DNA from: Candidatus Zambryskiibacteriota bacterium | GTDB lineage: Bacteria; Patescibacteriota; Minisyncoccia; Phycocordibacterales; DATDWN01 | Assembly (NCBI GenBank): GCA_023267045.1 | Contig: JAHFOB010000004.1 | Span: 1-56,342 of the forward strand | Reading direction: 5' to 3' | DNA length: 56,342 bases | In this document: positions 1-18,889 of the stretch, in pieces | How the letters are laid out: each line of letters opens with the position of its first letter | Numbering within the stretch: position 1 is the stretch's first letter | Notes under the pieces: model-generated | Told to the model about the DNA's origin: nothing | What the model saw: the letters and a program-made list of their open reading frames with translations, nothing else | Databases searched by the model: none | Position numbers and translations under genes: made by a program

Positions 1-1637
1 CCATTTTGGAAAAAAGCGATTGCTGTAACATCTTTGCCGTCATTTTTTCTAAATTTCAACTCTAAATGATTCTTTTCTTTGCCAAAAAGTTTTATGGCAT
101 CGATTTTTATATTTTCAAGGAGAAATAGTGGTTTGGGGTTACCAAGTCCAAACGGCGCAAACTTTTCTATCTGGCTGTATGTATTCCAATTTACATCTTC
201 GAGGGAAAGTTTTTTGTCTACCAAAATGTCAAAGGGCACCTTTGACATTTTAGATAACTCCAGAAAAGCTTCATTTAATCTGTCTTCAAGGGTGTGAATA
301 TTTTCCTGGGAAACTGAAAATCCTCCAGCCCCTTTGTGCCCACCGTATTCAACGAAAACATCCCCAGAAATATTATTGGCTTTTTCCATAAGGGCAACAA
401 CGTCCGTATCTCCTCCGGCCCGACAGGAACCTTTTATCACAGAACTTCCGTTACTACCTTCCCTGCCCCAGAAAAAAACTGGCCTTTGGTGTTCATCGCT
501 AAAACTATTTGCAACTAAACCCAAAAGGCTCGGTTTCCATTCTGGATTTCCGAAAACTAGTACGTGCCTCATCCCTTCATCTCTGTCTTTAATTTTCTTT
601 TTTATTTCTTTGACATAACTTGCCACAACTCCTTTGCGCTCATCATTTTTGTTATTCAAATGCTGTGCCAAAACTCCGGCTTCTACTTCATCAACCGTCG
701 ACATCAAAGTAAATGCATCTTTTGGAATACCCATGCGCGATGCAGCGTTAATACGCGGTGTGATCATAAAACTAATATCATCTTCTGTTGCCGTCGACTT
801 GTTTATATTTAGAAGTGAAAACAATTTAAGCAGTCCCACTCGTGGACTTTTTTGGAGGACTTTCATTCCATAATATGACAGGACACGATTTTCGCCTAAA
901 AGTGGAACCATGTCGGAAAGTGTTGCTAAACCAACCATGTCTAGTAACCATTTTTCCCAACCTAAAGGAGGAATGACCAAACCCCAATGACCAATGTCCA
1001 ATTCAGAACGAATTTTTAAAATAAGAGCTTGAATAACTTTGAAAATAACTCCTGAGCCACAGAGCATTTTTTCTGGATACTCATCGCCTTTTTGTTTTGG
1101 ATTTATAATGGCAAATGCTTTGGGTAATTTCTTTCCTGGGATGTGATGGTCGGTAATTATTACGTCAATTTTATTTTTATTTGCAAAAGCAACTTCTTCT
1201 ACATCTGTAATACCACAATCAATAGTGATAATCAGTTTCACACCTTGGTCAACCAAACTTTGTATCGCATCGACATTGAGACCAAAACCTTCTTCGTTTC
1301 GCAGTGGAATATAATTTACAAAATTTTTATACCCAATTTTCTGAAAAAAATCATGCAGTGCCACCGCCCCAGGAATTCCATCGGCATCATAGTCACTAAA
1401 AATTCCAATCTTCTCATCTTTCTGTATTGCTCTCACGATTCTCTTAACCACCTTGTCCATATCTTTCAGTAAAAAAGGGTCATGCAATTTTTCATATTCT
1501 GGATTTAAGAAAAGATTTGCTAACTCAAGGTCTTTTATCCCACGAGAATATAATAGAGATCGAACCAGAGGATCATAGACTTTCAAAGCTTCGCCTACAT
1601 CGACCGGAATAGGATTTCGGAGTGCATATTTTTTCAT
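1..1637 (-). CDS. recJ: Single-stranded-DNA-specific exonuclease RecJ, N-terminal ~545 codons; the ORF continues past the left window edge
   Basis: Absent from the ORF track because it is open at the window edge. Own translation from the ATG (rc of 1635-1637) gives MKKYALRNPIPVDVGEALKVYDPLV... The DHH-family motifs FSDYDADGIPG, TIDCGIT, ITDHHIPG and GGHKGAGGFS occur in the expected order. Confidence 0.85.
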   Translation of the reverse strand, partial: MKKYALRNPIPVDVGEALKVYDPLVRSLLYSRGIKDLELANLFLNPEYEKLHDPFLLKDMDKVVKRIVRAIQKDEKIGIFSDYDADGIPGAVALHDFFQKIGYKNFVNYIPLRNEEGFGLNVDAIQSLVDQGVKLIITIDCGITDVEEVAFANKNKIDVIITDHHIPGKKLPKAFAIINPKQKGDEYPEKMLCGSGVIFKVIQALILKIRSELDIGHWGLVIPPLGWEKWLLDMVGLATLSDMVPLLGENRVLSYYGMKVLQKSPRVGLLKLFSLLNINKSTATEDDISFMITPRINAASRMGIPKDAFTLMSTVDEVEAGVLAQHLNNKNDERKGVVASYVKEIKKKIKDRDEGMRHVLVFGNPEWKPSLLGLVANSFSDEHQRPVFFWGREGSNGSSVIKGSCRAGGDTDVVALMEKANNISGDVFVEYGGHKGAGGFSVSQENIHTLEDRLNEAFLELSKMSKVPFDILVDKKLSLEDVNWNTYSQIEKFAPFGLGNPKPLFLLENIKIDAIKLFGKEKNHLELKFRKNDGKDVTAIAFFQN

Positions 1638-1697
1638 TAAAATAGTGTAACACGAATGATACTTTATACATTATACTTTATACGTTATACTGCCATT

Positions 1698-2084
1698 ATG
1701 GAGAACTGTATTTTTTGCAAAATAGTTAAAGGAGAAATCCCATCTTACAAAGTTTATGAAGATGAAAACTTTATGGCGTTTCTCGATATAAATCCAGAGT
1801 CTCCCGGTCATGTTCAAGTTATTCCCAAAAAACACTACCGCTACGTCTGGGACGTGCCAAATGCTGGAGAACTTTTTGAAGTCACAAAAAAGATAGCAAA
1901 AGCCCAACAGAAAGCATTTAATACGGATTGGATACTTTCAAAAATAATCGGTGACGAAGTCCCTCACGCTCACATCTGGGTTTACCCAGGAATCAAAGAC
2001 GGTGACACTGCTTCGCTAAAGCTACGCAGTGCCAGCAAAAAAGATTTTGAATGTAATGCTCAAAAAATAAGAAATAATTTGTAA
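1698..2084 (+). CDS. HIT-family (histidine triad) protein
   Basis: Track ORF 1656-2084; the likely start is ATG 1698 (MENCIFCKIVKGEIPSYKVYEDENFMAFLDINP...). A C-terminal histidine motif PHAHIWVYP is present. Confidence 0.8.
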   Translation: MENCIFCKIVKGEIPSYKVYEDENFMAFLDINPESPGHVQVIPKKHYRYVWDVPNAGELFEVTKKIAKAQQKAFNTDWILSKIIGDEVPHAHIWVYPGIKDGDTASLKLRSASKKDFECNAQKIRNNL

Positions 2085-2087
2085 AAT

Positions 2088-2255
2088 AAAACCCCCCCCC
2101 TCACAAGTTTTTGAAGACCGTCCACTCCGCCAGCGCTACGTTCACTTAATTCTCGACCCAAATCCGTCAAGAGCCCCTCGACAAGCTCGGGGTCATTGAC
2201 GGAACCGGCTTTGGGTCTGCGAGGTCTCCAAAAACTTGCGACTCAACGGGATTTT
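2088..2255. repeat. Long imperfect hairpin element, family 1a, copy A (AAAA...C9...GGGATTTT)
   Basis: It exactly fills the gap between the HIT stop (2082-2084) and the pgk stop (2254-2256). Its reverse complement matches 21384-21553, with the first 64 nt identical. Arm pairs include caagtttttgaagacc/ggtctccaaaaacttg and ccaaatccgtcaa/ttgacgg..tttgg. Confidence 0.85.
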
Positions 2256-3399
2256 ATTTTTCTAACGCCTGTATACCTGGCAATGTTTCATTGACAAGAT
2301 AATCCATCATCGCGCCACCACCGGTAGAAATAAAGCTGAATTTGTGATTAAGGTTTAGTTTATTTATTGAAGCGATTGTGTCTCCCCCGCCGACAATACT
2401 TTCTGCGCCGTTTTTTGTAGTTTGTTCTGCAATGATTTCAGCAAGCTGTTCAGTCTTGTCCTGAAAACCAATTTCGTAGTTTCCAAGTGGTCCATTCCAA
2501 ACAATTGTTTTTGCATCTTTCAAAATATCTTTTAGTTCATCGATGGTTTTAGGACCAGCATCTGCTATGTAGTCATCTTTTGAAACTTCGTCTAATGTTT
2601 TAAATTCTGTCTTACCATTTTCTTTTTTGACTGTTACATCAACAAAAGTTTTGAGCTTTGGATTTTCTAATATATCTTTTGAAATCTCCCCTTCTGAAAT
2701 AAGTGATACTCCAACTTCAAAACCTCGAGCTTTGAAAATATCGTTGGCCAAAGCACCAGCAACAAACACGACATCTGCCTTATCCAAATATTTTTTGATA
2801 AGTGGAAGTTTGGTTTGAAATTTCGATCCACCCAAAATAAAAACGAAAGGGTGAACTGGTTTGAATGCTCTGGAAAGATGTTCTATCTCCTGTCGCAAAA
2901 GTAAGCCACCATAATGCGGAATAAATTCTGGCACCCCGACAATCGAGGCGTGTTTTCTGTGCGAGACACTGAAAGCATCGTTTACATATATATCAGCCAT
3001 ACCAGATAGCTGTTTTGCAAAGACCGGATCATTTTCTTTTTCTCCAGGATTTATACGAAGATTTTCAAAAAGCAAAACCCCTTTATTCTGAAGTTTTAAA
3101 ACTTTTTCTACTGCCTCTGACGTAAAGTATGTTGAACAAAAATCTAACGGAAAATATCCCTTGAGATAATCGAAAACGGGAAGAAGTGTGGTTGTCTCCC
3201 CATTATTATCTTCAATATGAGCAACGATAATAGTTTGCGCTCCCTTGTGACGCAAAAAATCAACCGTCTCGACTATTCTCTCTAGTCTGTATGTATCACC
3301 TACTTCCCCGTCTACAATAGGAACATTCAAATCAAGACGAAGCAGAACTCGTTTACCTTCCAAATCTTGTTTATCTAATTCGTCTAAGTAGTGAACCAT
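2254..3399 (-). CDS. pgk: Phosphoglycerate kinase
   Basis: 381-aa ORF with typical PGK blocks: RLDLNVP, AHIEDNNGE.., FLLENLRINPGEKEND-like, STGGGAMMDYL. Confidence 0.95.
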   Translation of the reverse strand: MVHYLDELDKQDLEGKRVLLRLDLNVPIVDGEVGDTYRLERIVETVDFLRHKGAQTIIVAHIEDNNGETTTLLPVFDYLKGYFPLDFCSTYFTSEAVEKVLKLQNKGVLLFENLRINPGEKENDPVFAKQLSGMADIYVNDAFSVSHRKHASIVGVPEFIPHYGGLLLRQEIEHLSRAFKPVHPFVFILGGSKFQTKLPLIKKYLDKADVVFVAGALANDIFKARGFEVGVSLISEGEISKDILENPKLKTFVDVTVKKENGKTEFKTLDEVSKDDYIADAGPKTIDELKDILKDAKTIVWNGPLGNYEIGFQDKTEQLAEIIAEQTTKNGAESIVGGGDTIASINKLNLNHKFSFISTGGGAMMDYLVNETLPGIQALEK

Positions 3400-3405
3400 A
3401 CTTTT

Positions 3406-3434
3406 ATTGTAAGTGATTTGACATTGATAATCAA
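3406..3434 (-). promoter_or_regulatory. Putative promoter TTGATT-17 nt-TACAAT ending 6 nt before the pgk ATG (possible leaderless mRNA)
   Basis: The minus strand reads ttgattatcaatgtcaaatcacttacaataaaagtATG. No Shine-Dalgarno sequence lies between the -10 box and the ATG. Confidence 0.4.
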
Positions 3435-3460
3435 TTTGCTATCATGTTTGTATCACCACG

Positions 3461-3500
3461 AAAAGTCCCCTTGTAGGCTCGTCCTACAAGGGTCCTTTTT
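3461..3500 (-). terminator. Hairpin terminator downstream of the NYN gene
   Basis: cccttgtagg(3468-3477)/cctacaaggg(3483-3492) form a 10-bp stem, flanked by an A-run and a T-run. Confidence 0.6.
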
Positions 3501-3975
3501 ATTTTAAACCTATCTTAAGCTTCAAATCATTCATAAAGGCAATATTTTTCTTTGCAAATTTCTTAAGAAGTGCCGAATATTTATTTCTATTTGGAACTAA
3601 TACTGTTTGAAGTTTATGTTGCTCAAACAAATACTGTACTAAACAATAAAAATCACCGTCGCCAGTTACTATTATAGCTTTATCAAAATTTTGGAATTGT
3701 ATCATTGTATGCAAAACCATTTCTGCATCAACATTTCCTTTAACAGTTCCATCTTTGTAGGTCAATACAGGTTTAAATATACAAATGAATCCTGCTTTTT
3801 GTAATTTTATATAGACTCCATTATTTCCTTCAATATATCCTATAAAAAGGTAGGCTGTACTAACTCCATAATGTTCTTTCAAATAAACTCTAAATCTCTC
3901 CCAATCAACACCCCAACCTTGAGATTTTATTGATAAATAAACATTTTGGCTATCTATAAAAGCAAAATTATTCAT
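3499..3975 (-). CDS. NYN-domain (LabA-like) protein, paralog 1
   Basis: 158 aa with N-terminal FIDSQNVY and the TGDGDF motif (IIVTGDGDFYCLV). The start codon is 2 nt after the tpiA stop. Confidence 0.8.
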   Translation of the reverse strand: MNNFAFIDSQNVYLSIKSQGWGVDWERFRVYLKEHYGVSTAYLFIGYIEGNNGVYIKLQKAGFICIFKPVLTYKDGTVKGNVDAEMVLHTMIQFQNFDKAIIVTGDGDFYCLVQYLFEQHKLQTVLVPNRNKYSALLKKFAKKNIAFMNDLKLKIGLK

Positions 3976-3977
3976 TT

Positions 3978-4736
3978 TTATATTGCGTCAATAGTTTTTA
4001 TTATTTCTACAAAATCTTTACTGTATAAACTCTGTCGTCCGATGAGGAGCCCCGAAACATTGCCATCACGAACCAGCATGTCAGCGTTTACTCTATCAAC
4101 CGATCCACCGTACAAAACTCTGACGCCATCAGCCATGATTCCATACAAATCTTTCAAAATTTTTTTTATGTAAATAGACATCTCATACAAATCTCTCGGG
4201 CTCATAGCTTCTTTGGCACCAATAGTCCAGATCGGTTCATATGCAATGACTACTCGATCTATTGATTTTTTGTTTACATCTTTCAAAGCAGAAACTAGTT
4301 GGTGTCGTATAAAATGAAAATAATCACCGTTTCCATCTCTCTGACTTTCACCAACACAGATGATCGCATTCATACCACCAGAAACCACTGCTTTAACTTT
4401 TTTATTAACCATTTCATCTGTCTCACCCATTTTCCGCCTTTCTGAATGTCCAACAATGACGTAACTCACACCAAACTGGTAGAGCTGACTCCAACTAACC
4501 TCGCCCGTAAAAGACCCGAGAGTTTCAGCGTTTGCATTCTGGGCACCAAGAAAAATAGAATTACCAGGAATATGTGAAAGTGCAGACAAATAAACAAAAG
4601 GCGGACAAAGAACAACATTAGTTCTTTGAATTCCACGAATTGATCTTTTTATGCCCGTTGCTAGTTTCTTTGCCTCCTCAAGTGAAACCGGATTCATCTT
4701 CCAATTTCCGACAATAAGTTTTTTCTGTTTTTTCAT
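3978..4736 (-). CDS. tpiA: Triosephosphate isomerase
   Basis: Motifs GNWKMN, VGHSERR and YEPIWTIG. The track start (4778, GTG) lies inside an upstream terminator hairpin, so ATG 4736 (MKKQKKLIVGNWKMN) is preferred. Confidence 0.9.
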   Translation of the reverse strand: MKKQKKLIVGNWKMNPVSLEEAKKLATGIKRSIRGIQRTNVVLCPPFVYLSALSHIPGNSIFLGAQNANAETLGSFTGEVSWSQLYQFGVSYVIVGHSERRKMGETDEMVNKKVKAVVSGGMNAIICVGESQRDGNGDYFHFIRHQLVSALKDVNKKSIDRVVIAYEPIWTIGAKEAMSPRDLYEMSIYIKKILKDLYGIMADGVRVLYGGSVDRVNADMLVRDGNVSGLLIGRQSLYSKDFVEIIKTIDAI

Positions 4737-4763
4737 CTCCTTATTGTATCCGGTTTTGTGTAT

Positions 4764-4970
4764 AAAAAAAAGCTGCACCGAGTTGATGCAGCTTTGCCAG
4801 TCCCTAGGGACCGGCCGAGCGAGCTTGCAAAGCTCTGCGTCCCATGCAACCCCCCCTGTAAGAAAGGGACGGTATAAGGAGAGCGGTTTCCAGTGATCGC
4901 GCTGGCGCTAACTCAAGGTCGCGTCGAGCGGCGTCTTTTTCCTGGCACCATTTCCCTCCCCCGTCTAGTT
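4764..4970 (-). ncRNA. Candidate GC-rich structured sRNA (R1), family unknown
   Basis: A minus-strand TTGACA (4998-5003) is followed by a weak -10 box (GATAGT/ATAGTC) about 16-17 nt downstream. About 190 nt of visibly GC-rich sequence has no ORF. It ends in the hairpin gctgca-N9-tgcagc (4772-4792) plus a T8 run. Confidence 0.35.
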
Positions 4971-5214
4971 ACTAGACTATCATACTCTATATTAATCTGT
5001 CAAGCTCTTTTATCAAAATCATCAAAAAACCTTACAGGTTCTGTACACCTTTCGCTTTCTGATTACAGAACGCTCAAGGTCTTGCATTTGGGTCCCTTAT
5101 CCCAAATTCACCTCAAAATAAGGGTTTTTTGAATCCGTATTGGGATGGCGTAAGCCATACCTGGCTCAGAGGATTTTTGGCGAAGGTCGCGTATAAAATT
5201 TGGAAATGTAAAAT

Positions 5215-5239
5215 CCCCTTGAAGACCGTCTTCAAGGGG
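5215..5239. terminator. Palindromic hairpin CCCCTTGAAGACCGTCTTCAAGGGG (repeat; second copy at 10847-10871)
   Basis: A perfect 11-bp stem flanked by aaat/attt. The 25-mer is identical at 10847-10871. Confidence 0.7.
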
Positions 5240-5429
5240 ATTTCCACGGTTGTAGAACGAATTAAATTGCCTCAGATGCTAGGCGCGGAAAAGTTTGCGA
5301 GCGAGCCTAGAACTGCTGAAACTGGATGCAGTTCTAGGCGGAAAGGTGAATGGGCGAGGAGCCGTACAACTCGTACGGTGACGAGAACATTTGCCTTTCC
5401 AACAACGAAATGCGCCAGTTTCAGCAGTT

Positions 5430-6896
5430 CTATTGTGTTTCGTCCCAGGAGACGATAGAGTACTGGTCAGAAGTCAACGGAAAACTCGGTGGCGGAGCAT
5501 AAAGCAAATTGGCATCGTAATTTATAATTCTAGTCTGATAACCACTATTATCTGAATAACCGAAACCGTAACGCTGATTTGAAACTATTATGCCAAAAAG
5601 AGTAATCGTCTGTCTTTGGTGATAAGGATTACACTGTGGTTCATAATAAAGTCGCCCGACACGACCATTTTGAGCAATCAGAGCAGCATCTATAGTTATA
5701 TCATTAAGTGAATCCATGCCAACATTAAAATTATTTTGAGCAATAAGACCAATAACATCCTGACCATCAAAATATGTATATTTAAGATTACTATTTACCG
5801 TAATGGAAGTTCTTGTCGATGGATTGTCCGGGAAACGACCAGAAGCAATAGTTACGCGAGCTGTAGATATTTGACCATCCACCCACACATTATCTTCGAC
5901 AAAAATCAAACCATTTGCTGGCAAAGGAAAATTCCCTTGCGATGTTTCATTTTTTATACTCCATGATCCCCAACCGTCTTGGTTCAAATCATTTGTACAA
6001 TTTTTTGGCACAGCTTCTAGTTGAGTGACTTTATACAAATCATATGTGTCGTTTGTTTTTAGAACAATATGATAGCCTTGAGCAGATGATGCCGAAAGAT
6101 ATTTTCCTCCGGACTGTGCATCACTTTTTATTTGAGATAAGTTTGAAGTAAAACCGGTAAAATCAACAGCTGGAACAGGAAACTGTCTGCCTGCTTGAAA
6201 AACATCATTTCTGTTAGGCACTGGATTCGGTGGAGCTTCGGCTATTCTGAAACTATCATCGGTTATACCACTGTTTGGCGGAGGAGGTCTGACATGCGTA
6301 TGAACACCAAACTCTTCATTGCCAGAATGATCGGGATCATCATACTTGTCTTTTGCACTGGTAACTACATTGTGAGCAATACCGTCAAAACGCACACCGC
6401 CGTTGGCATGTATTGGACCGAAAATTTCTGTTCCCTCTCCGAAACGCATAGCATCGTTTGCCACGACAGCAAATCTAGCCAGTGATGGAATAGCTAGTTG
6501 AGCGGAAATGACTCTTTTGACACTAGAGTCTGACAAAACTTTTCCTGTTGATTTAATTTTAACTAATGTCGAACCGGTCGGAGGAGGAGTGATCTCAAGA
6601 GTAAAAGTGCCAAGCATTGTCCCGTCTTTGTCATAAAAAGAGTGAACAAAAGGACCAGTCGATGTTCCTGTTCCATCTCTATAATCCGTGTGATCGTGAG
6701 CCAAATGCCACCTATAGTAGTCAATGCCCGCCTCGGAGATTTGTAGGGCTTGCTCACGATAAACTCCAATGCGTGAAGCTTTTATATTAGTTCCAGCCCA
6801 AGAAATAAGGGCACCTATTATAACAATAGAAATAACTGCGAAAACAAGGGTTTGTATTAACATACTGCCAGAATTTTTTCCAAATTTTTTGATCAT
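5430..6896 (-). CDS. Pilus-associated membrane-anchored protein (PilX-N-like N-terminus), function unassigned
   Basis: 488 aa with an N-terminal hydrophobic helix (SMLIQTLVFAVISIVIIGALISW). It is the last gene of the pilin-like gene run. Confidence 0.5.
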   Translation of the reverse strand: MIKKFGKNSGSMLIQTLVFAVISIVIIGALISWAGTNIKASRIGVYREQALQISEAGIDYYRWHLAHDHTDYRDGTGTSTGPFVHSFYDKDGTMLGTFTLEITPPPTGSTLVKIKSTGKVLSDSSVKRVISAQLAIPSLARFAVVANDAMRFGEGTEIFGPIHANGGVRFDGIAHNVVTSAKDKYDDPDHSGNEEFGVHTHVRPPPPNSGITDDSFRIAEAPPNPVPNRNDVFQAGRQFPVPAVDFTGFTSNLSQIKSDAQSGGKYLSASSAQGYHIVLKTNDTYDLYKVTQLEAVPKNCTNDLNQDGWGSWSIKNETSQGNFPLPANGLIFVEDNVWVDGQISTARVTIASGRFPDNPSTRTSITVNSNLKYTYFDGQDVIGLIAQNNFNVGMDSLNDITIDAALIAQNGRVGRLYYEPQCNPYHQRQTITLFGIIVSNQRYGFGYSDNSGYQTRIINYDANLLYAPPPSFPLTSDQYSIVSWDETQ

Positions 6897-6902
6897 ATAC
6901 TT

Positions 6903-7526
6903 TTAGAGATTGCCTTTTAAATTTCTTATACTTACTTGAGATGTAACTATAATCGGAGCTGGAGATTTATTTGGGTCTTTATCAATTATAACTGTGATTT
7001 TAACTAAACGCACTGTAGAAATATCGATAGGGTCAGAAAGTGGAGCTCCTGTACCAGAATAAGTTTCTGGAAAATACTGAAAAAGAGGTTGGGTTGAACT
7101 AGAAACAAAAGAGTTTATGACTGTGGTCAATTTTTCATTAGCGTCATTATATGTAAGAGGACTTCCGCTAGGAGCTACTACACCTTGTTTTACAGTACTA
7201 CCACTGACAAAATATCTGATTTTGTCTTTTGTCCCATTGTTGTCTATGTCACTGTAAAAAGTAATGCTTGTCGAACTTGCTATAGCAATCGGATATGCTC
7301 CTAGGGCTGATTGAGTCGCCTCTCTAATTTCAGTAACCATTAGTTTGACAACATGACGAGCGTCAATTTGGGCGTTGAGACTTCCCTGTAAAGAAAAACC
7401 TAAAGAAAAAATATCTTTTTGAAAGGTGCTGATGGTTACGGTCAAAAGAGCCAGTATAGAAACACTTATCAGAAGCTCAACTAGAGTGAAACCAGAATTT
7501 AATTTTTTAGAAAAATTATTTTTCAT
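6903..7526 (-). CDS. Prepilin-type N-terminal cleavage/methylation domain protein (minor pilin-like)
   Basis: MKNNFSKKLNSGFTLVELLISVSILALL carries the class III signal G/FTLVE. The track start at 7592 lies inside a hairpin repeat, so ATG 7526 is preferred. Confidence 0.75.
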   Translation of the reverse strand: MKNNFSKKLNSGFTLVELLISVSILALLTVTISTFQKDIFSLGFSLQGSLNAQIDARHVVKLMVTEIREATQSALGAYPIAIASSTSITFYSDIDNNGTKDKIRYFVSGSTVKQGVVAPSGSPLTYNDANEKLTTVINSFVSSSTQPLFQYFPETYSGTGAPLSDPIDISTVRLVKITVIIDKDPNKSPAPIIVTSQVSIRNLKGNL

Positions 7527-7642
7527 CCCGTTAGAAACAGATCGCAATCTGAAAGTTTTTTGATTATTATTTTTTAAAGATACTTTTAACATTTCCTATT
7601 CATTATACTAAAATTCAGAGTGATTGCGGTTTCTAACGGGAT
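7525..7642. repeat. Hairpin with ATCCCGTTAGAAAC...GTTTCTAACGGGAT arms that embeds the start codon of the pilin-like gene
   Basis: The left arm is 7525-7555 and the right arm is 7611-7642. The same arm motif occurs at 43572-43680. Confidence 0.7.
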
Positions 7643-7660
7643 TCATTTTATCTTTTTATT

Positions 7661-9469
7661 TTAACTCGGAACAAATATTATTTCTTGTGATGTCCAGCTT
7701 GAATTTATAGGCACAGTTACATCTTGAGAAATATAACCAGTTTTTGTTAAATGCATAGTGTAAGTGTCTGAAGAAAGTCCAGTGAAAAAAACTTGTCCTG
7801 GCGGAGTACATAAAGAAGTAAATGTGAAAGAAACGTCTGAAATATTTGGTGTAGAAGTTGATAGAGCGGTATCGAGAAATATTTTATAGCGTATATATTG
7901 TTTACCGTTGTTACTTGCTGATATGTTTTTATTTGAAACAGTATAGTATGTACTAGCTGTGCCATCCGGACCAGTAAAATTCCATGTTACTGTATCGTTG
8001 TTTGTGGCTATTTGTAGACGAACGTTTGGAGAACCTGTTTGCACTGGCTGGTCAACAGGATTCCAGTTTATTTGTTGAAAATTGACTTGTGAACCAATAT
8101 CAAAAGTCGATGATGTTAGTGTGCCACTTGGAACGTAATCTCCAAATATTGATTTTAGTACAACATCACCGACAGGATTTTGGTTTTCAATATTTCCATC
8201 AGAGGAAAGATATTTGGTAGGGTCAGTTGATGTCGCTTGTCCCCCCCCACCAGACCAGTCTGTCTGACCGAGAAAACCTTGACCAGTGATTTTTGTAGAA
8301 TCAAACCCAGTAGTGCCGACCAACTCTACTGAAACTCCAGAAAGAGGAAGACTGGTGACACTATCTTTAACAGTAATCAAAAGAGTTTTGGGATTTTTTG
8401 CCGTAACTATAAGTAAGACATTTTGACCGCTATTTGGCGTTAGAGAAACTGGTGAAATCGGACTTATACCAACTAAATCATATGCAGTGTCTATGTTTGC
8501 GAAAGTATATGAATCCCATTCGAGATTTGATAAAGAAAGAGCGCCGTTTGAATCAGTTATTTTGTTTTGGCTGTATTTATAAACACTTGGTAAAGTGCCG
8601 ATAAGTTTTGCACCAGTCAAAGAAAAATCTATACCAGGAACCGGAGCACAAGTATCTGAAGAAGATGTGACAGAAAATGAGCTAAGTTTGTCAATAATAA
8701 AACTAGTTTGTGTGACTTGTTGCAAAACAACCGTGGCGTGTGGTTTTGTCGGATTTGGATTGTTAATGGTCGCAGTATAAGTTTTGTCTGTTGAGTATCC
8801 TGCTTTTGTTACGGTGATTTCATAAGCGTTCACTCCCGGTGGAGCATCAACTATTTGTAAAACTCCGCTATTGTTCGTAACGTCATCTATAGTAATGGCA
8901 GGATTTACTGCGTGATTTTCCACATGAACGTTAGCTTCAGTAACGGGATTGCCGTTTGCATCAAAAACTCGAATAAAAAGCGCCCCGTTAGTCGAAGCTG
9001 TCTCTAGGTTTTTCGGAGAAACGCGCGTGGTGACGATCATCGGTTTGAAATTTTTGCACGTTGCACAAGTCACATCAATCTCAACTACTTTTGAATCTGC
9101 TGGCGAAAGATCGTTTGGTGTTCCGCCCAAAGTTCCGTCAAAAGGGTCGTCATAATTTCTGACCGTTGTAGTCACGGCATATGAGGTGCTGTTTCTTACC
9201 AAGTTTTGTATGTGAGTTAGCTTTCCGTTCGGTATTCCCCCAGAAATACCAACGTCAGAGTACGGCATATTTCTGACGATTTCTAACTGTTCGTTTACGA
9301 GACTTATAGCTTCTATTTTTGCTCGACTAGTTGAAACGACGTTGAAAATACTGATGTAAGCTCCGTAAACAGAAACAACAAGTACAGTCAGAACTGCGAC
9401 CGAGACGACAACCTCAACAAGAGAGAAACCATCAGAGAATTTTTTTTTGCTAAAAGTATTATAGTGCAT
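7661..9469 (-). CDS. Large pilin-like protein with a prepilin-type N-terminus
   Basis: 602 aa; the N-terminus KKKFSDGFSLVEVVVSVAVLTVLVV contains G/FSLVE. The long Thr/Ser/Asn-rich body suggests a beta-rich fold. It overlaps the pilC stop by 11 nt. Confidence 0.75.
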   Translation of the reverse strand: MHYNTFSKKKFSDGFSLVEVVVSVAVLTVLVVSVYGAYISIFNVVSTSRAKIEAISLVNEQLEIVRNMPYSDVGISGGIPNGKLTHIQNLVRNSTSYAVTTTVRNYDDPFDGTLGGTPNDLSPADSKVVEIDVTCATCKNFKPMIVTTRVSPKNLETASTNGALFIRVFDANGNPVTEANVHVENHAVNPAITIDDVTNNSGVLQIVDAPPGVNAYEITVTKAGYSTDKTYTATINNPNPTKPHATVVLQQVTQTSFIIDKLSSFSVTSSSDTCAPVPGIDFSLTGAKLIGTLPSVYKYSQNKITDSNGALSLSNLEWDSYTFANIDTAYDLVGISPISPVSLTPNSGQNVLLIVTAKNPKTLLITVKDSVTSLPLSGVSVELVGTTGFDSTKITGQGFLGQTDWSGGGGQATSTDPTKYLSSDGNIENQNPVGDVVLKSIFGDYVPSGTLTSSTFDIGSQVNFQQINWNPVDQPVQTGSPNVRLQIATNNDTVTWNFTGPDGTASTYYTVSNKNISASNNGKQYIRYKIFLDTALSTSTPNISDVSFTFTSLCTPPGQVFFTGLSSDTYTMHLTKTGYISQDVTVPINSSWTSQEIIFVPS

Positions 9470-10673
9470 CGGCGAGTGAATATGTTGGACCTAACATTGA
9501 AATTGCGAAAAATCCTACACCCACACCGATAAAAATCATAAGCAGTGGTTCTATTATAGATGACATATCTTTGGTTTTCTGGTCGACCTCATCTTCATAA
9601 AAAGTCGAAACAGAAAGTAACATCTCGCCTATTTTGCCTGTTTCTTCACCAACTGAAACCATTTCACCAACAAAAAGCGGATAGAGTGTTGAGTTGTTTG
9701 TAAACACAGCCGATATCGGATCACCTTTTTGTATTGTGGCCTGAACTTCTTCCAAGACATCTTTATAATACGAATTTTGTAGAACATCTCTAGTCACGCC
9801 AATAGCCACAACAATATCAACTCCGGAAGAAAGAAGGGATGAGAGTGTTCGAGCTGTCCGAGCAGAGTTAATTTGTTTTACGATTTCACTTATGATTGGC
9901 ATATGCAAAAGAGAAAAGTCGGCTATTCTTTTACCCCGAGGTGTTCGGAAAAAAACTGTAGTTAGAAAAACGCCAATAATTGTTCCCAGAATAACAAAAA
10001 CGAAATATGATTTTAGAAAATCACTAACAGCAATAATAATCCGAGTAGATAATGGTAGTTTCACCCCAAGTCCAACGAAAGTAGCAGTCAGTGTCGGCAC
10101 CATATAGACCATCATCAAAACTCCAATAGCAATCATCAAACAAAATATAACTGTTGGATACATCAAAGCCCCGCGAATTTTCTTAGTCAGCTGATAGGAT
10201 TTTTCCATCTGTTCACCGACGTTTTGTAAGGCTAGTGATAGATTACCCGACTCTTCACCCGCTCTGACCATTGAGACGAAAAGTGTTGAGAAAACTCGTG
10301 GATAGGCTTTCATCGAATCACTAAATGTATTTCCTTTACTTAGCGATTCATTTAATCCGGCCAAAACTTTTTTCAAAGGCCCGCTTGATTGGCGCTCCAT
10401 GATAGAAAGCCCTCGAGTAACAGGTAACCCTGCATCAATCATTTTAGAAAGATTTTTTGCAAAAGTGATTTTGTCGTGAGCTTTAATGCCATTAAGAAAA
10501 GGCAACATTGCTTCAATAGAAAATTTTCTTTTAGTCCCAACTTCATCTGCCGAAATAACAGTTGAGCCGTCTTGTTTCAAGATGTGGTACAAAGCAAACT
10601 TGTCTTTGGCATCCATTGTGCCCTGTTTGACGTTACCGTCTTTATCTAAAGTTTTGTAATGAAATAGTGACAT
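9459..10673 (-). CDS. pilC: Type IV pilus platform protein PilC (GspF/T2SS-F family)
   Basis: 404 aa with two repeated T2SS-F-like halves and three hydrophobic segments. It lies in a pilus gene context. Confidence 0.9.
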   Translation of the reverse strand: MSLFHYKTLDKDGNVKQGTMDAKDKFALYHILKQDGSTVISADEVGTKRKFSIEAMLPFLNGIKAHDKITFAKNLSKMIDAGLPVTRGLSIMERQSSGPLKKVLAGLNESLSKGNTFSDSMKAYPRVFSTLFVSMVRAGEESGNLSLALQNVGEQMEKSYQLTKKIRGALMYPTVIFCLMIAIGVLMMVYMVPTLTATFVGLGVKLPLSTRIIIAVSDFLKSYFVFVILGTIIGVFLTTVFFRTPRGKRIADFSLLHMPIISEIVKQINSARTARTLSSLLSSGVDIVVAIGVTRDVLQNSYYKDVLEEVQATIQKGDPISAVFTNNSTLYPLFVGEMVSVGEETGKIGEMLLSVSTFYEDEVDQKTKDMSSIIEPLLMIFIGVGVGFFAISMLGPTYSLADAL

Positions 10674-10846
10674 ACGAATTATACAAATGTAATCAAATAT
10701 ACGAATTGATCAGATTGAATTTGTATTTATTTGTAAATTCGATCTCATTCGTATTATTCGTAATTATTATAGCAAAATTTCTCCGTCTAAGAATAAAATG
10801 TGTGTATAAAGAATTTGTCATAACAAAAAATGTCCCCTTGAAGTGT

Positions 10847-10871
10847 CCCCTTGAAGACCGTCTTCAAGGGG
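10847..10871 (-). terminator. Terminator hairpin of the GC-rich gene (same 25-mer as 5215-5239)
   Basis: The minus strand reads ccccttgaagacggtcttcaagggg followed by ...acatttttt. Confidence 0.7.
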
Positions 10872-10973
10872 GTTGAGGACATAGTAAAATCCCGTGGTGA
10901 TAAATCACCACGAGATGTGTCGGAAGAGTCCAAGTGTCCAAGAGATAAAGTTCTATTCCAAGGACACAGAGCC

Positions 10974-11606
10974 TTAGTTCTTGATGCGAACGACGAGGAA
11001 CCGAAAGTGACCGAGCCAGACGTCATCAAACCGGTACAGATACAAGCCCCGCCCGGAAAAGTACCCGCCGAGGATCGGAACATGACGCTCCCAAAGCAGA
11101 AAGCAGGATGAACCGAGAGCGACGATGGGAAACTGCCTCTGAAGCTCGGGGTTTTTGGCTCCGAAAGCCAGAAGCTCCCATATCGTCGCTGGTCGGAATC
11201 CTTGCTTCTTCATGTTCGCCAGAGCAGAGTCTGAAGAGATGCTCCCGAAGTGCAGAAGCTCGGCTTCCACTGCTTGAGTGGCCTGCTGAACTCCAGCAAA
11301 CAGAGTAGGCTTCAGGAATTTCTTCTCGGTGATGTTATCAGACACACAGTCGTACTTACCGAGCGCGATCGTCTCCGACAAGCTCATGGTGTAATCCACG
11401 ATGAATCGGAAGACCATCGTGACGAGACCGAGAAGCTTGCGGAACTCTTCCCTTGTCGGGATCGTCCCGTGAACGATTGCCTCGGCGATGTCCGCGAGAA
11501 TGCCCTTGCCGAGGAGGTCGTTCTGAACCTGTTCCGAGCTGAGACCTTTTTCATCAAGAGTCTCAATCACTCGAACGAACTGACGCGGGGTAACAGAGGT
11601 GCTCAT
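10974..11606 (-). CDS. GC-rich hypothetical protein, distant paralog of the DGR target protein
   Basis: 210 aa with SD aaggag upstream. G/C-ending codons contrast with the neighbouring genes. The C-terminal PILGG...DDVWLGHFRFLVVR resembles the target's PFLLGA..DDGQWL...GFAFVVSQ. The promoter is identical to that of the DGR target gene. Confidence 0.6.
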   Translation of the reverse strand: MSTSVTPRQFVRVIETLDEKGLSSEQVQNDLLGKGILADIAEAIVHGTIPTREEFRKLLGLVTMVFRFIVDYTMSLSETIALGKYDCVSDNITEKKFLKPTLFAGVQQATQAVEAELLHFGSISSDSALANMKKQGFRPATIWELLAFGAKNPELQRQFPIVALGSSCFLLWERHVPILGGYFSGRGLYLYRFDDVWLGHFRFLVVRIKN

Positions 11607-11691
11607 GGCATTCTCCTTTTCCGTTCTGCATTTGCAGGCGGATTTGGTGCGACAGAATTGTCGCTAACCAGTCAAAGAACCTTACCACGGC

Positions 11692-11721
11692 ATTATACCA
11701 CCTATGATAGGTAGCTGTCAA
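11692..11721 (-). promoter_or_regulatory. Consensus sigma70 promoter TTGACA-18 nt-TATAAT
   Basis: The rc reads gcTTGACAgctacctatcataggtggTATAAT. The 32-nt block 11692-11723 is identical to 20099-20130. Confidence 0.7.
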
Positions 11722-11821
11722 GCATTTTGTAAATCTCAAAATATGCCTAAAAATAAAGAGTTTTGGAACTATTTTTATTTATCTATACTAGATTTATGAA
11801 TATTCTGCTAAAATGTAGTTT

Positions 11822-12307
11822 ATGTATAAAGTTAACATATATGTGGATGGGAATAACTTATATCGCAGTGCCAAAGAATTAGGATTTGAAATTGATTATA
11901 AAAAATTCCGTGGTTGGTTAAGACAGAAATACAAAACAACTAATGTATATTTATTTATAGGATTAGTACCAGAGAGAGTAAAGTTTTACCAGTATCTACA
12001 AGAATCTGGTTTTATTTTAATATTCAAACAAACTGTTTCAGTAAGTGGAACTATAAAAGGAAATTGCGATGCTGAACTTGTTTTGAAAACTACTTCTGAT
12101 TTTTATACTAAAGCTTTTGACAGATGTATTTTGATAACTGGAGATGGTGATTTCGGATGTTTAGTAGAATTTTTGGAAAATAATTCAGCTTTGAACTGTG
12201 TTTTGGCCCCAGATGAAAATAAGTGTTCAATATTATTAAAAAACAAAAATATTGAGATTACATTTATGAATGAACACTATCATAAATTCTCAAAAAGATT
12301 AGCTTAA
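11822..12307 (+). CDS. NYN-domain protein, paralog 2
   Basis: 161 aa with IYVDGNNLY and ILITGDGDFGCLV. It is collinear with the 3499-3975 product. Confidence 0.8.
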   Translation: MYKVNIYVDGNNLYRSAKELGFEIDYKKFRGWLRQKYKTTNVYLFIGLVPERVKFYQYLQESGFILIFKQTVSVSGTIKGNCDAELVLKTTSDFYTKAFDRCILITGDGDFGCLVEFLENNSALNCVLAPDENKCSILLKNKNIEITFMNEHYHKFSKRLA

Positions 12308-12405
12308 AAAGAAAAAGCCCCCGATGCATACGTATATGCATAAGGGTCTTTTTCATAGTGATATATAGAGTATATACTGTCTGGTTGTAAAGTCAATGCC
12401 TAAAT

Positions 12406-14160
12406 CTACTCTGATATAACTCGGAGGACTTCTTCGACTGTGGTGACTCCTTGAACCGCCTTGAAAATCCCATCCTCAAACATAGTCATCATCCCCTCCG
12501 CTTCGGCAATCTTCTGTATCGAGTCAGTTGTGCCGGACTTTAAAATATCTTCTTTTATTGCTTGTGAAACTTTTAGTATCTCATGAATTCCAGCTCGGCC
12601 AGAAAAACCATCATCAGGTTTCACATTTTTTTTCAGCCTATAAAACGGAACTTTTTCCCAAGTATCGCCTTTGCCGACTATTTTCTCTTCTTTTAATATC
12701 TCGAGAACCTTATCTAGATTTATTGATTTACCTAAAGTGGCGATTTCAGGCTTGGTCATAAAATATTTTTCTTTTTGTTCAGAAAGTCGACGAACCAAAC
12801 GCTGTCCAATAATAATATTGACAGTCGAGACAATAAGAAATGGTTCTACTTTCATATCAATAAGCCGAGGTATTGCTCCTGCAGCCGAGTTTGTGTGGAG
12901 AGTCGAAAGAACAACGTGACCTGTGAGCGATGCGTTAATAGCTAGCGAAGCTGTTTCATTGTCTCGAATCTCACCAACCATAATAATATCTGGATCTTGT
13001 CGAACAAGAGTTCGCAATCCGTTTGCAAAAGAAAAACCTATTTCTGGACGAACCTGTGTTTGGTTTATTCGTTTCATCTGGTACTCGATAGGGTCTTCAA
13101 TCGTTGAAATGTTTACATCTGCTGTATTCAAAATATCGAGAATAGTGTAGAGAGTTGTGGTTTTTCCAGAGCCTGTTGGACCAGTGGTCAGTATCATCCC
13201 AGTTGTAGACTTTACTGCCTTGTGAATTTTCTCCAACCCTTCTCCGTGAAAACCCAAGTGCTCCAGAGTAAACCCAGAAACATTTTCTCGCAAAAGTCTC
13301 ATAACGATTTTCTCACCGTAATATGTCGGCAGTGTAGAAACACGGAAAGAAACTTTCTCGCCATCGGAGTCGATTTTGAAACGACCGTCTTGCGGAAGAC
13401 GCTTTTCGTCAAGTTTCAAACTTGAAAGGACTTTTATTCGAGCAGCGATACTTGCTGCTGTGTTTCTTGGTAGAACCATTGCATCATGGAGAATTCCGTC
13501 TATTCGGTAACGAACGAGAAGCTGGCCGTCCTGCGGTTCAATGTGAATATCAGAAGCATTTTGAAGTATTGCGTGTTTTAAAAGTGTGTCTACAATACGA
13601 ATCATTGGTACATCCTCTGCCAGTTTTTTCAAATCTTGTTCGCCTAGTTCTGATGCAGAACTTTCGTTTGGAAGATTTTTTATTGCTCCAATATCTTGTT
13701 GAATGAGATCACCAAACTCTGCTTTCAAACTTTTTTGATACTGCAAGATAGCGCTTTTCATCGAATCGGCGTCAGTAAGACGAGGCAATATTTTCAAACC
13801 GACTTTTTTCTTTATGAAATCAATAGCGGTCAGATCCTCGGTGTCGAGCATAGCAACTTCGAGTGCTGTGTCTGACTTTTTGAAGGCAACAATGTTGTGA
13901 TTTCGTGCAATCGGCTCTGGGATAAGAGAAAGAACGTCAAATGGAAGTTTCTCACCTTTCAAATCAACAAAGGGAATGCCGAGGATGTATGCCTGCATCC
14001 GACGAAGATCGTCTTCTGTTAGTTTGCCTTTGTTGACTAGGATTTTGCCAACATTTCCACCTGTCTCGCTAGACTCTTTTTCAGCAACATCCAAATCCGC
14101 TCGAGAGACAAGACCCGAGTCTAAAATGAAATTTTTTAATTGAGATTCTTCAATGTGCAT
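12406..14160 (-). CDS. pilB: Type IV pilus assembly ATPase PilB (GspE family)
   Basis: 584 aa with Walker A GPTGSGKTTT, the GspE blocks RQDPDIIMVGEIRD and TGHVVLSTLHTN, and an N-terminal GSPII_E-like domain. Confidence 0.92.
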   Translation of the reverse strand: MHIEESQLKNFILDSGLVSRADLDVAEKESSETGGNVGKILVNKGKLTEDDLRRMQAYILGIPFVDLKGEKLPFDVLSLIPEPIARNHNIVAFKKSDTALEVAMLDTEDLTAIDFIKKKVGLKILPRLTDADSMKSAILQYQKSLKAEFGDLIQQDIGAIKNLPNESSASELGEQDLKKLAEDVPMIRIVDTLLKHAILQNASDIHIEPQDGQLLVRYRIDGILHDAMVLPRNTAASIAARIKVLSSLKLDEKRLPQDGRFKIDSDGEKVSFRVSTLPTYYGEKIVMRLLRENVSGFTLEHLGFHGEGLEKIHKAVKSTTGMILTTGPTGSGKTTTLYTILDILNTADVNISTIEDPIEYQMKRINQTQVRPEIGFSFANGLRTLVRQDPDIIMVGEIRDNETASLAINASLTGHVVLSTLHTNSAAGAIPRLIDMKVEPFLIVSTVNIIIGQRLVRRLSEQKEKYFMTKPEIATLGKSINLDKVLEILKEEKIVGKGDTWEKVPFYRLKKNVKPDDGFSGRAGIHEILKVSQAIKEDILKSGTTDSIQKIAEAEGMMTMFEDGIFKAVQGVTTVEEVLRVISE

Positions 14161-14412
14161 GGGTAGAAAATTTTTAATTTTTAATTTCCAATTTTTAAAT
14201 AATTTTCAATGATCTAATTTTTAAAAAGGAAACTTAATTAGTCTTAATTATAGCAAAATAAAAAATATCTGGCACAAATTGTGTGTACAAAAGCAGAAGT
14301 TGACAAACAGATTCCCTCTGTGATACTATAGAGACATTGAAGTTCGGCGTCAGCCGGGCTAATTTTTTACCCAGAATGGTAAAATAAGAAAAAGTTAACA
14401 TTTAGAAACTAG

Positions 14413-14537
14413 GACTTTCACAATTTGAGACAAGGTCGCGTATAAATTTTAAAAATAATTCGAGCCTTAGTTGGTGCTAAGGTGAGAAGAATTTTTAAAA
14501 TTTAGACGATGAGATTGTCCAAATTTGGAAGTCCGTA
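14413..14537. repeat. ~125-nt imperfect hairpin upstream of nusA
   Basis: The arms are ggactttcacaatttgagacaaggtcgcgtataaatttt... and ...aaaatttagacgatgagattgtccaaatttggaagtcc, with an apical ccttag/ctaagg stem. The motif aaggtcgcgtataaa recurs at 5184-5198. Confidence 0.7.
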
Positions 14538-14550
14538 ACACACAATAATT

Positions 14551-15702
14551 ATGATAGATCTAAAAGTAGTGAGCTCTGTATTAGCTCAACTAGAGGAAGA
14601 GCGTGGCATACCTCGAGAGAAAATTCTTGAGGCTATTGAGCTTGCCCTAGCTACTGCCTATAAAAAAGAGTATGGAAAGAAAGGACAGATTGTTCGAGCA
14701 AAATTTGATATGAATACTGGAAAATCTGAAATGTTCCAAGTAAAAATCGTCGTTGATGAAAGCACAGTTTTCATGGATGAGGATGAATTGTTAGAAAACG
14801 AAAGTGAACCTATCGTAGAAGGAGTTCCGGAAAAAGAACTATATAACTCTGAAAAACATATTTTGCTCTCCGATGCTCGTCGTATAAAAAAAGATGTAAA
14901 GCTCGGTGAAGAAATGATATTTCCCCTTGAAGGTCAGGAGGACTACAGTCGTATTGCCGCTCAAACAGCAAAACAGGTTATCATGCAGAAAATTCGTGAA
15001 GCAGAAAAAGTTTCTATCATGGCTCAATATGGACAAAGAGAGGGTGAAATAGTTACTGGAACTGTCCAAAGAATGGAGCGAGGAAATATTTTTGTTGATC
15101 TGGGAAGAGCCCCCGGCATACTGCCATACGAAGAACAAATTCCTGGAGAGAGATTTGGCCAAGGTGAGAGACTTCGATCATATCTATACAGAGTAGAGGA
15201 ATCAGGAAAAGGTGTCTTCCTACGACTTTCTCGTTCACATCCAAAGTTTTTGGAAAAACTTTTTGAAGTTGAAACGCCAGAAATTGCAAACGGAACTGTT
15301 GTCGTAAAAGCCGTTGCTCGTGAAGCCGGTAGCCGAACAAAAATCGCTGTCGCCTCAAAGGACTCTCACATCGACCCAGTTGGTTCAATGGTGGGTCAAC
15401 GTGGAGTGCGAGTTTCTACTGTTATGTCAGAATTGGGTGGAGAAAAAATAGATATTATTGAATGGTCTGAAAATCCAAAGAAGTTTATTGAGGATGCTCT
15501 CTCTCCTGCTAAAACAATCGAAGTTACAATAAATGAAGCGGAAAAACAAGCCACTGTCTTGGTTTCTGAAGATCAACAGTCACTTGCTATAGGAAAAGGT
15601 GGTCAAAACGTGCGACTTGCTGCAAAACTAACTGGTTGGAAAATAGATATTCAGTCTACAAATCCTAGAAAAGAAATTGCAGAAGAAACTCCTACTGAAT
15701 AA
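14551..15702 (+). CDS. nusA: Transcription termination/antitermination factor NusA
   Basis: 383 aa with an N-terminal NusA domain, S1 and two KH regions (GxxGxxV, IGKGGQNVRLA). Confidence 0.95.
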   Translation: MIDLKVVSSVLAQLEEERGIPREKILEAIELALATAYKKEYGKKGQIVRAKFDMNTGKSEMFQVKIVVDESTVFMDEDELLENESEPIVEGVPEKELYNSEKHILLSDARRIKKDVKLGEEMIFPLEGQEDYSRIAAQTAKQVIMQKIREAEKVSIMAQYGQREGEIVTGTVQRMERGNIFVDLGRAPGILPYEEQIPGERFGQGERLRSYLYRVEESGKGVFLRLSRSHPKFLEKLFEVETPEIANGTVVVKAVAREAGSRTKIAVASKDSHIDPVGSMVGQRGVRVSTVMSELGGEKIDIIEWSENPKKFIEDALSPAKTIEVTINEAEKQATVLVSEDQQSLAIGKGGQNVRLAAKLTGWKIDIQSTNPRKEIAEETPTE

Positions 15703-15823
15703 AACTTCTTTCTCCTCATATCTTTTTTGGAAACAGAATAAATTCTTGCTAGAATTTTTCTTCGCGCTCGTCTCTACACGGACTCCGCGATGTTCCAAAA
15801 AAGTCATGAGTCAACGAAGTTTT
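15701..15823. repeat. Long hairpin element, family 1b, copy F
   Basis: It starts at the nusA stop. The outer arms are aaacttctttctcctcatatctttttt / aaaaaagtcatgagtcaacgaagttt. The conserved core gaataaattcttgctagaatttttcttcgcgctcgtctctacacggactccgcgat is shared with 21247-21369 and 41957-42081. Confidence 0.8.
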
Positions 15824-15861
15824 ATAGATGTGCTATAGTTATAAAAAATAATAATCACAAT

Positions 15862-16377: not shown

Positions 16378-16495
16378 AACTCTCTTAACATTTTCTCTGG
16401 TAAATAAAGACACCATCGAAAATCCTTGTCTAGTTGCTGGACAAGGATTTTCTAGTATATAATGCCAGTATTACTATAATAAAAACTAAAGCAAG

Positions 16496-17170: not shown

Positions 17171-17180
17171 ATAAAAAAAT

Positions 17181-17459
17181 ATGGAACAAAATAAATCATC
17201 TATAGGTTCTATCATCGGAACAATAATCATAATTTCAATTATTATTCTTGGTGGTTTGTATTTCTGGGGTAAAAGAGTTGAGGAATCTAAAATAAAACAG
17301 GATTTAGTAAACAGTAGCACTTCTACAACAACTGGAGACAATGAAGCGGCGTCGATAAGAAGCACAAGCCAATCTGATGATCTAGATTCTATTAACGCAG
17401 ATCTAAATGCAACAAATCTAGACAACCTCGGAGCGGAGATGAATACAACCACACCTTAA
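17181..17459 (+). CDS. Small N-terminally anchored membrane protein
   Basis: 92 aa with one TM segment (IGSIIGTIIIISIIILGGLYFW) and a Ser/Thr/Asp-rich tail. Confidence 0.55.
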   Translation: MEQNKSSIGSIIGTIIIISIIILGGLYFWGKRVEESKIKQDLVNSSTSTTTGDNEAASIRSTSQSDDLDSINADLNATNLDNLGAEMNTTTP

Positions 17460-18859: not shown

Positions 18860-18889
18860 TTACAAAATTTTGGCGGGAAATGAAGTGAT

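Follow-up and report, generated by a model that had tools for sequence, protein, structure and literature searches.

Within the window, that is, the whole 56,342-nt stretch of DNA that was analysed, a HIT-family gene (1656-2084, plus strand; Pfam HIT) and pgk (2254-3399, minus strand; Pfam PGK) converge on a gap occupied by a 168-nt element (2088-2255, plus strand), hereafter copy A. Reading the sequence directly confirmed the original prediction that this element fills the gap: the TAA stop codon of the HIT gene (2082-2084) lies 3 nt before its left end, and the TAA stop codon of pgk (2254-2256) overlaps its last two T. Copy A belongs to the long form (class I) of the family described below and was scored by the covariance model with 128 bits. 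It starts with a degenerate left motif, AAAACCCCCCCCCTC (2088-2102), followed by the 5' arm of helix P2 (2103-2119), the P3 region (2120-2151), the 5' arm of P4 (2152-2170), the apex (2171-2195), the 3' arm of P4 with an ACCGGC bulge and a CTGCGAG junction (2196-2223), the 3' arm of P2 (2224-2240) and the right motif, ACTCAACGGGATTTT (2241-2255). Its G+C content is 54% (38% for the window), and compared with shuffled sequences it folded with a z of -5.6.

A near-identical, inverted copy, copy B (z = -8.8), had been predicted at 21384-21553, and indeed, the reverse complement of copy A aligned to it with 153 of 170 positions identical (90%). The predicted run of 64 identical nucleotides was also found; in the element's own orientation, it makes up the 3' 64 nt, and all differences between the two copies are in the 5' half and the apex. 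Outside the apex, they amount to a C9 tract in place of TCCCTTTCTCC, as described before, and four point changes. The apices, in contrast to the earlier claim, differ only in part: the changes affect about 9 of 24 positions and include two paired ones (CCCC/GGGG versus CTCT/AGAG), and the type of apical hairpin is the same.

The prediction named two copies, but there are more: a covariance model, for which 25 long copies were used, found seven in the window, four long and three short, when run with filters off. The end motif AAAATCYCGTYGAGTC occurs nine times in the window (2.1 expected by chance), and all seven copies have AAAATCTC followed by TTTCTC at the left end and TCGAC followed by GAGATTTT at the right end. 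The short copy F (123 nt, 15701-15823, plus strand) has its left end within the nusA stop codon and precedes the ppa promoter. Copy D, of the same short form (class II; 123 nt, 21247-21369, plus strand; 66 bits), starts in the tig stop codon and stands tail to tail with the long copy B (170 nt, minus strand; 156 bits), whose left end overlaps the rsmE stop codon; 14 nt lie between the two. The long copy C (176 nt, 37266-37441, plus strand; 145 bits) begins 34 nt past the rpsO stop codon, and its left end is abutted by an inverted solo right-end fragment (AAAATCTCGTTGAGTC..., 37240-37265, minus strand). The long copy E1 (170 nt, 41558-41727, plus strand; 165 bits) directly follows the comM stop codon, and the short copy E2 (123 nt, 41959-42081, plus strand; 67 bits) directly follows the stop codon of a second, 46-nt comM 3' tail (41913-41958, plus strand), a remnant that encodes ..LQYRLKKCQSF and a stop and shares 78% identity with the real tail (41512-41557). 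The upstream genes are therefore HIT (A), nusA (F), tig (D), rsmE (B), rpsO (C), comM (E1) and the comM-tail remnant (E2). About 2% of the 56-kb stretch is taken up by one elaborately folded repeat family, despite the tiny, streamlined genomes of Patescibacteria.

The duplication at comM includes the last 46 nt of the gene and the first 26 nt of the element (41512-41583), which recur 401 nt downstream (41913-41984) with 78% identity; the interval between the two tails holds E1 and a small minus-strand ORF. The second tail looks like the displaced original tail of the gene, and the arrangement of E1 and E2 is compatible with homology-facilitated illegitimate recombination.

Several other features were seen in the window. 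A diversity-generating retroelement occupies 17392-20130. Its reverse transcriptase is encoded on the minus strand (17392-18462) and a bAvd-like protein on the plus strand (18497-18859); a pair of 128-nt repeats with 87% identity (18890-19017 and 19382-19509) overlaps a GC-rich target gene (19370-20050). A repeated block with a perfect TTGACA-18-TATAAT promoter on the minus strand is found at 11673-11723 and 20080-20130; the two copies lie upstream of 10974-11606 and of the retroelement target gene. Between the xerC-like gene and rpsO, a stretch of about 500 nt (36300-36850, minus strand) is free of ORFs, GC rich and strongly structured (z = -4.5), includes a promoter (TTGACA-17-TATCAT) as well as a perfect terminator (GGTCGCTTCCC...GGGAAGCGACCTTTTT), gave no Rfam or tmRNA match and is a candidate for an unknown non-coding RNA. 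Three paralogues of NYN-domain proteins (predicted RNases) are encoded at 3499-3975, 11822-12307 and 37538-38095, the last directly downstream of copy C. Inverted repeats of about 50 to 100 nt with 79 to 89% identity connect 5260-5418 with 31109-31209 and 24786-24832. A second, unrelated family of hairpin repeats carries a GTAG tag (CCCCGTAGTAG...CTACTACNGGGG), comes in long and short forms and looks like classical REPs; its members are at 38404-38479, 51603-51678 and 22917-22955 and, as short forms, at 29292-29323, 38482-38513, 43924-43955 and 54797-54832, some of them inside coding sequence (pcrA and a gene of a T4SS cluster).

Distribution and fold of the family

The census of the family covered the window, one pattern scan of species genomes and one metagenome scan. 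When 185,579 species genomes were scanned for the end motifs, 44 loci were obtained. About 35 of these are real, all in Patescibacteria MAGs labelled Zambryskibacteria, Paceibacterota, Parcubacteria, Minisyncoccia and, in some cases, "Saccharibacteria"; the remaining 9 are chance matches in which no hairpin is formed. In the window and the scan loci together, the model found 53 copies, including a 158-nt form and variants of 209 to 212 nt that share only the end module. These counts bore out the suspected multi-copy nature of the element, and the opposite picture, in which these copies alone exist and lie within a segmental duplication, was looked for and not found. A search of Rfam 15 with the whole window returned only four tRNAs at the gathering threshold, and copies A, E1/E2 and C gave no credible match at E ≤ 10. 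The full-text literature searched, with subscription journals outside its coverage, held no description of the family. Copy A is a member of a large, apparently undescribed family of non-coding, hairpin-forming interspersed repeats of Paceibacteria-type Patescibacteria.

The copies have a plan in common: 5'-AAAATCTC, TTTCTC, helix P2, an interior, the other arm of P2, (Y)TCRAC and GAGATTTT-3'. The ends pair to a closing helix of 8 bp (AAAATCTC/GAGATTTT), and next to it an asymmetric internal loop, with TTTCTC opposite YTCRAC, is kept. A reading of this loop as a kink-turn, made by eye, was dropped because the GA/AG register did not fit. The long second helix, P2, differs from subfamily to subfamily and encloses one of at least three alternative interiors. 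In the long form, this interior is a three-way junction with a hairpin that has a C(A/T/G)GC loop and with a helix, GTCAA...TTGAC, in which there is an ACCATGC bulge and whose apex can be exchanged; at least three apex types recur.

The original prediction had called for a covariance check over all copies. In a model-based alignment of 29 long copies, 42 of 60 pairs had changes on both sides (in 333 cells). Of the cells, 90.7% were paired compared to 72.8% in column shuffles, none of 500 shuffles reached the observed value, and sliding the partners by 1 to 3 columns lowered pairing to 33 to 51%. These data demonstrate that the fold is maintained by compensatory change. Covariation is mostly in P2, P3 and the lower P4 helix. 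Sequence conservation is seen at the closing helix and the internal loop, in the C(A/T/G)GC loop, at the CCTCGG/CTGCGG junction, in GTCAA/TTGAC and in the ACCATGC bulge. Modules, both apex and interior, are swapped among copies: as in A and B, the same backbone carries a different apex at locus L001 than at L006 and L027, and the idea of a variable apical module thus held.

Strand preference and position at gene ends

The two strands of the element do not fold equally well. The strand 5'-AAAATCTCGTCGAG...GAGAAAGAGATTTT-3', the complement of the plan given above, is the more stable one in 51 of 53 copies, by a mean of 10 kcal/mol (Wilcoxon p = 3e-10); it has 163 G-U pairs (79 on the other strand), and its advantage is seen in all three modules. 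This better-folding strand is usually the one opposite to the mRNA of the abutting gene. When only consensus pairs were considered, the asymmetry was clear in helix P2 alone (A.C 34 versus G.U 10), and one conserved U.G in P4 opposes the bias. The evidence for single-strand-specific selection on this "bottom" strand is therefore moderate. Transcription-coupled mutation as the source of the asymmetry was rejected, since the asymmetry tracks the orientation of the element and not the direction of the neighbouring gene.

In 29 of 53 copies, among them all seven in the window, the left end is -1 to +13 nt away from a stop codon on the same strand, and nine copies share two bases with a TAA. Gene contexts were assigned in the element's orientation with ORFs of at least 100 aa. 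Between tandem genes, 15 copies are in sense and 15 in antisense orientation; 11 copies are between convergent genes and 4 (of 46 classifiable) between divergent genes, with at least one of the latter, copy C, being an artefact of the size cut-off. The family thus shuns promoter-only regions and hugs gene ends. Overall, sense and antisense orientations relative to genes occur at about 31:15, or roughly 2:1; a rule that the element always has the orientation of its gene is true of all seven window copies and fails family-wide, as the tandem genes show.

Looking for target-site duplications, as the original prediction proposed, gave a negative result for the 53 copies: the longest direct repeats in the flanks had a mean length of 4.5 nt versus 4.7 nt in the control, and a repeat of at least 7 nt was found in one copy (6% in the control). 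That single case, a 9-nt repeat at L015, is within the control expectation. The palindrome itself extends by at least 3 bp into the flanks in 16 of 53 copies, compared to 5% in controls. Directly past the right end, a motif, G(T/C)T(T/A)(A/G)GTGGT(A/G)ATTTTTATA, recurs in the flanks of L002, L010, L028, L034 and L040 (3063-3182) and thus in several genomes. A promoter common to these loci or an additional module may be behind it.

The element had also been likened to a grossly extended bidirectional terminator. Its position and layout alone speak for this: at the tig/rsmE junction, where the window has D and B without unique spacer, relatives have canonical bidirectional terminators with A-tract, GC-hairpin and T-tract of the AAAAAAGAGGCC..GGCCTCTTTTTT type (e.g., AAAAAAGAGGCCTAAGGCCTCTTTTTT). 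The helix beside the T-run, however, is weak and A/U-rich (AAAATCTC/GAGATTTT) and only four T follow, in place of the G+C-rich stem with a directly adjoining run of T/U by which intrinsic terminators are defined. A consensus terminator scan of positions 1-20000 gave 32 sites, none of them at A or F, and canonical terminators are used elsewhere in the genome of the window. In three metatranscriptomes of the same groundwater samples, no contig matched window positions 20000-39999. Judging from the A4-hairpin-T4 layout, a role as terminator or insulator is plausible.

Empty sites and exchange between copies

Copies occur at sites that are empty in related genomes. The synteny recJ-HIT-pgk was found at 80 metagenome loci, and in these 292 kb, the model had one match, at a place other than the HIT-pgk junction. 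In the closest relatives, 4 to 27 nt lie between the HIT and pgk stop codons in place of copy A, and in other lineages, unrelated hairpins occupy the junction. Likewise, the gap between nusA and ppa, where the window has copy F, measures 39 to 42 nt in L125 and L128, which retain the order nusA-ppa-...-tig-...-rsmE-clpP-rny; the window flank after F aligns with the sequence directly past the nusA stop codon in these two loci. In place of the retroelement, their ppa-tig stretch has only two small genes.

Copies can also be far more alike between genomes than the genes that flank them. L001 and L006 are orthologous loci behind a gene for an M3 peptidase whose protein is 90%, DNA 84% and third codon positions 65% identical, while the arms of the element are identical at 149 of 150 positions and the apex is exchanged as a block; L027, a second locus in the same MAG, has an element with 99% identity. 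Among short and 158-nt copies, identity is 85 to 94% between different MAGs and unrelated loci, where the flanks are at the random level. Together, the empty orthologous sites and an element identity far above that of the flanks at L001 and L006 support the recent copying or conversion that the original prediction had proposed.

Not all copies are recent. The nearest relative is in the same genome for only 7 of 28 long copies, and subfamilies are common to different MAGs at 75 to 82% identity. Since most copies are old and diverged, there is no signature of a burst. Copy C and the copy at L026 were considered as orthologous copies behind rpsO, but this was rejected because the upstream proteins are unrelated. 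In the source metagenomes, the elements are covered 3 to 8 times as deeply as their flanks, contigs break off in them and other flanks are seen; neither a clean case of filled/empty polymorphism nor a trustworthy joint was found in these contigs, the sole joint that spans F having a side of only 20 nt.

Rearrangements next to the element were observed at two further places. Behind gyrA (proteins 96% identical), two genomes differ in the arrangement of the elements: L023 (4804-5016) and L005 (4398-4738) have two element types in common, but their order and their orientation to the gene are reversed. Like the raised depth over the elements, this difference speaks for duplicative spread. A simple inversion of the doublet may be involved; the outer stems differ, however, and L023 ends too early for a full comparison. 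In L006, a 1047-nt segment (2414-3460) with one ORF of 302 aa (no Pfam match) is absent from the orthologous L001; it exactly fills the space from the right end of the element to alaS, and a second right-end-like GATGAGATTTT closes it. The family breaks assemblies and marks changes in gene order and should be masked or modelled in the annotation of CPR genomes.

Proposed mode of spread and comparison with known systems

Genes that could move the element were sought among the 45 ORFs of the window by Pfam, and no transposase, RAYT or GIY-YIG gene was found. The ORFs do include a gene for an XerC/D-like recombinase (35339-36259), the three NYN-domain genes, RNase Y and the retroelement reverse transcriptase. 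A coding form with the ends of the family was not present in the window or in 128 loci, and pairs of left and right ends gave no extended, long form in the window and 44 loci.

We consider it probable that this is a structured, duplicative, non-coding repeat family in terminator positions which, like REP, ERIC or BOX elements, is mobile or driven by conversion. The element would spread by copying or gene conversion via a folded single-stranded intermediate, with the conserved end module as the recognition site of a putative enzyme supplied in trans. Recent copying or conversion between copies, with a switch point at the apex, would then explain why A and B are nearly identical and share a clean 64-nt half. 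Copies may persist at gene ends because the unit of A4, long hairpin and T4 could replace the bidirectional intrinsic terminators of relatives. The conserved unpaired motifs of the interior, which are more than a selfish hairpin needs, count against a mobile repeat. If the element is mobile, it is a gene-less one, and its conserved end module would be a handle for finding a new enzyme acting on single-stranded DNA. A more specific version of this reading is put forward tentatively, as it is on the whole doubtful: the element might be a terminator-mimicking mobile module, strand specific and folded as a single strand, with fixed ends and an interchangeable interior and apex, that homes to A/T-rich junctions after stop codons across Paceibacteria and replaces bidirectional terminators there. 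It would be moved or converted, even between genomes, by a putative enzyme that reads the asymmetric internal loop, and its ends would be preferred breakpoints for the insertion of small gene segments.

The conserved unpaired nucleotides, together with the strong covariation, would be expected if the element were a dedicated cis-acting structured RNA that is not mobile, i.e., a 3'-UTR, terminator, insulator, processing or protein-binding platform that selection keeps at gene ends and that gains new copies by rare duplication. Such an RNA would also suit the left ends beside same-strand stop codons (29/53 copies, 7/7 in the window), the occupation of junctions that have canonical terminators in relatives, the age and divergence of most copies and, circumstantially, the genes for RNase Y and three NYN-domain nucleases nearby. 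However, the orientation to flanking genes is variable (15 versus 15 copies between tandem genes, about 31:15 overall), the better-folding strand is usually not that of the abutting gene's mRNA, the distribution is patchy with empty orthologous sites, element identity of 99% stands beside 65% at third codon positions, and no Rfam family matches, which makes this explanation unlikely. If it were true, the family would be a widespread gene-end module in organisms where termination and RNA processing are essentially unstudied. The absence of target duplications and the strand-specific folding, as in single-strand transposition, would fit a non-autonomous derivative of a small autonomous element elsewhere in the genome, encoding an Ssn-like GIY-YIG nuclease or an HUH enzyme of the IS200/IS605-RAYT type, and Ssn nucleases with hairpin repeats have been described (PMC11893778). 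Since neither a coding form with these ends (window and 128 loci) nor a gene for such a nuclease or transposase (window) was found, we regard this origin as quite unlikely.

Bottom-strand folding, a variable centre, extrahelical bases that are conserved and a left end at the stop codon are also features of an attC-like folded single-strand recombination site, at which a tyrosine recombinase would insert, swap or invert gene-end segments or small cassettes. The one-ORF segment of 1047 nt placed exactly between the right end and alaS in L006 with its closing GATGAGATTTT, the duplication of the comM tail with the element at E1/E2, the doublet that two close genomes arrange differently behind gyrA and the XerC/D-like recombinase gene at 35339-36259 would all be in line with such a site. 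Yet the elements are flanked by core housekeeping genes whose synteny is conserved, an integron integrase, attI and the GTTRRRY core are missing, and the cassette-like cases are anecdotal and equally well explained by homology-facilitated illegitimate recombination, so that recombination of this kind is very unlikely. An ordinary, oversized bidirectional terminator, similar to 21384-21553 by local segmental duplication or by chance, would account for the AAAA...TTTT ends and the long stem in a convergent gap. It was refuted by the copy census, in which dozens of copies between unrelated flanks in other genomes add to the seven of the window, and is hardly credible in view of the conserved non-helical motifs and the silence of the consensus terminator scan.

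Compared with known systems, the family shares with bidirectional intrinsic terminators the succession of A-tract, hairpin and T-tract and the location at convergent and tandem junctions that have canonical terminators in relatives. Unlike these, it has an A/U-rich stem by the T-tract, then a 6x6 internal loop, only four T and a length of 120 to 176 nt with sequence-conserved loops. Integron attC sites resemble it in the fold of the bottom strand, the variable length and centre, the conserved unpaired bases and the position directly after ORF stop codons, but the family has no IntI, attI, R/L box consensus or GTTRRRY core, the sole tyrosine recombinase of the window is XerC/D-like, and the neighbours are housekeeping genes in conserved synteny rather than cassettes. 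Correia elements (CREE/NEMIS) and other MITEs are likewise small, non-coding inverted-repeat elements; they are co-transcribed with their neighbours and can act as terminators or RNase III sites. They differ from the family by transposase-derived terminal inverted repeats and target-site duplications (TA in Correia), whereas the family lacks duplications and its palindrome runs on into the flanks.

REP sequences are short palindromes (about 20 to 40 nt) with a conserved GT[AG]G or CGTC tetranucleotide on the 5' side, and the gene for the RAYT, a Y1 HUH transposase, is typically flanked by the repeats. Like the REP/BIME/REPIN system of Proteobacteria with its RAYT transposases, the family consists of extragenic multi-copy hairpin repeats at gene 3' ends and between convergent genes, without target duplication, with single-strand specificity and with lineage-specific subfamilies. 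Inverted doublets, frequent among REPs, are matched by the tail-to-tail copies D/B and those at L038, L005 and L033, with seven copies of the family in 56 kb. It differs in being 4 to 8 times longer (123 to 212 nt versus 20 to 40 nt), in its ends, AAAATCTC.../...GAGATTTT, without the GTAG/CGTC tag, in its three-way-junction interior with conserved bulges, in having no RAYT gene among the 45 window ORFs and in its host, Patescibacteria. With ERIC/IRU and the pneumococcal BOX elements, the family has no sequence relation, and it stands apart from them by much stronger covariation, conserved unpaired motifs and a left end that is often on a stop codon. It does share with them the nature of an imperfect palindrome of about 120 to 170 nt in transcribed intergenic DNA, with patchy distribution and no known transposase, and the modular build of BOX (boxA-boxB(n)-boxC) has its counterpart in the shared ends around alternative interiors and apices.
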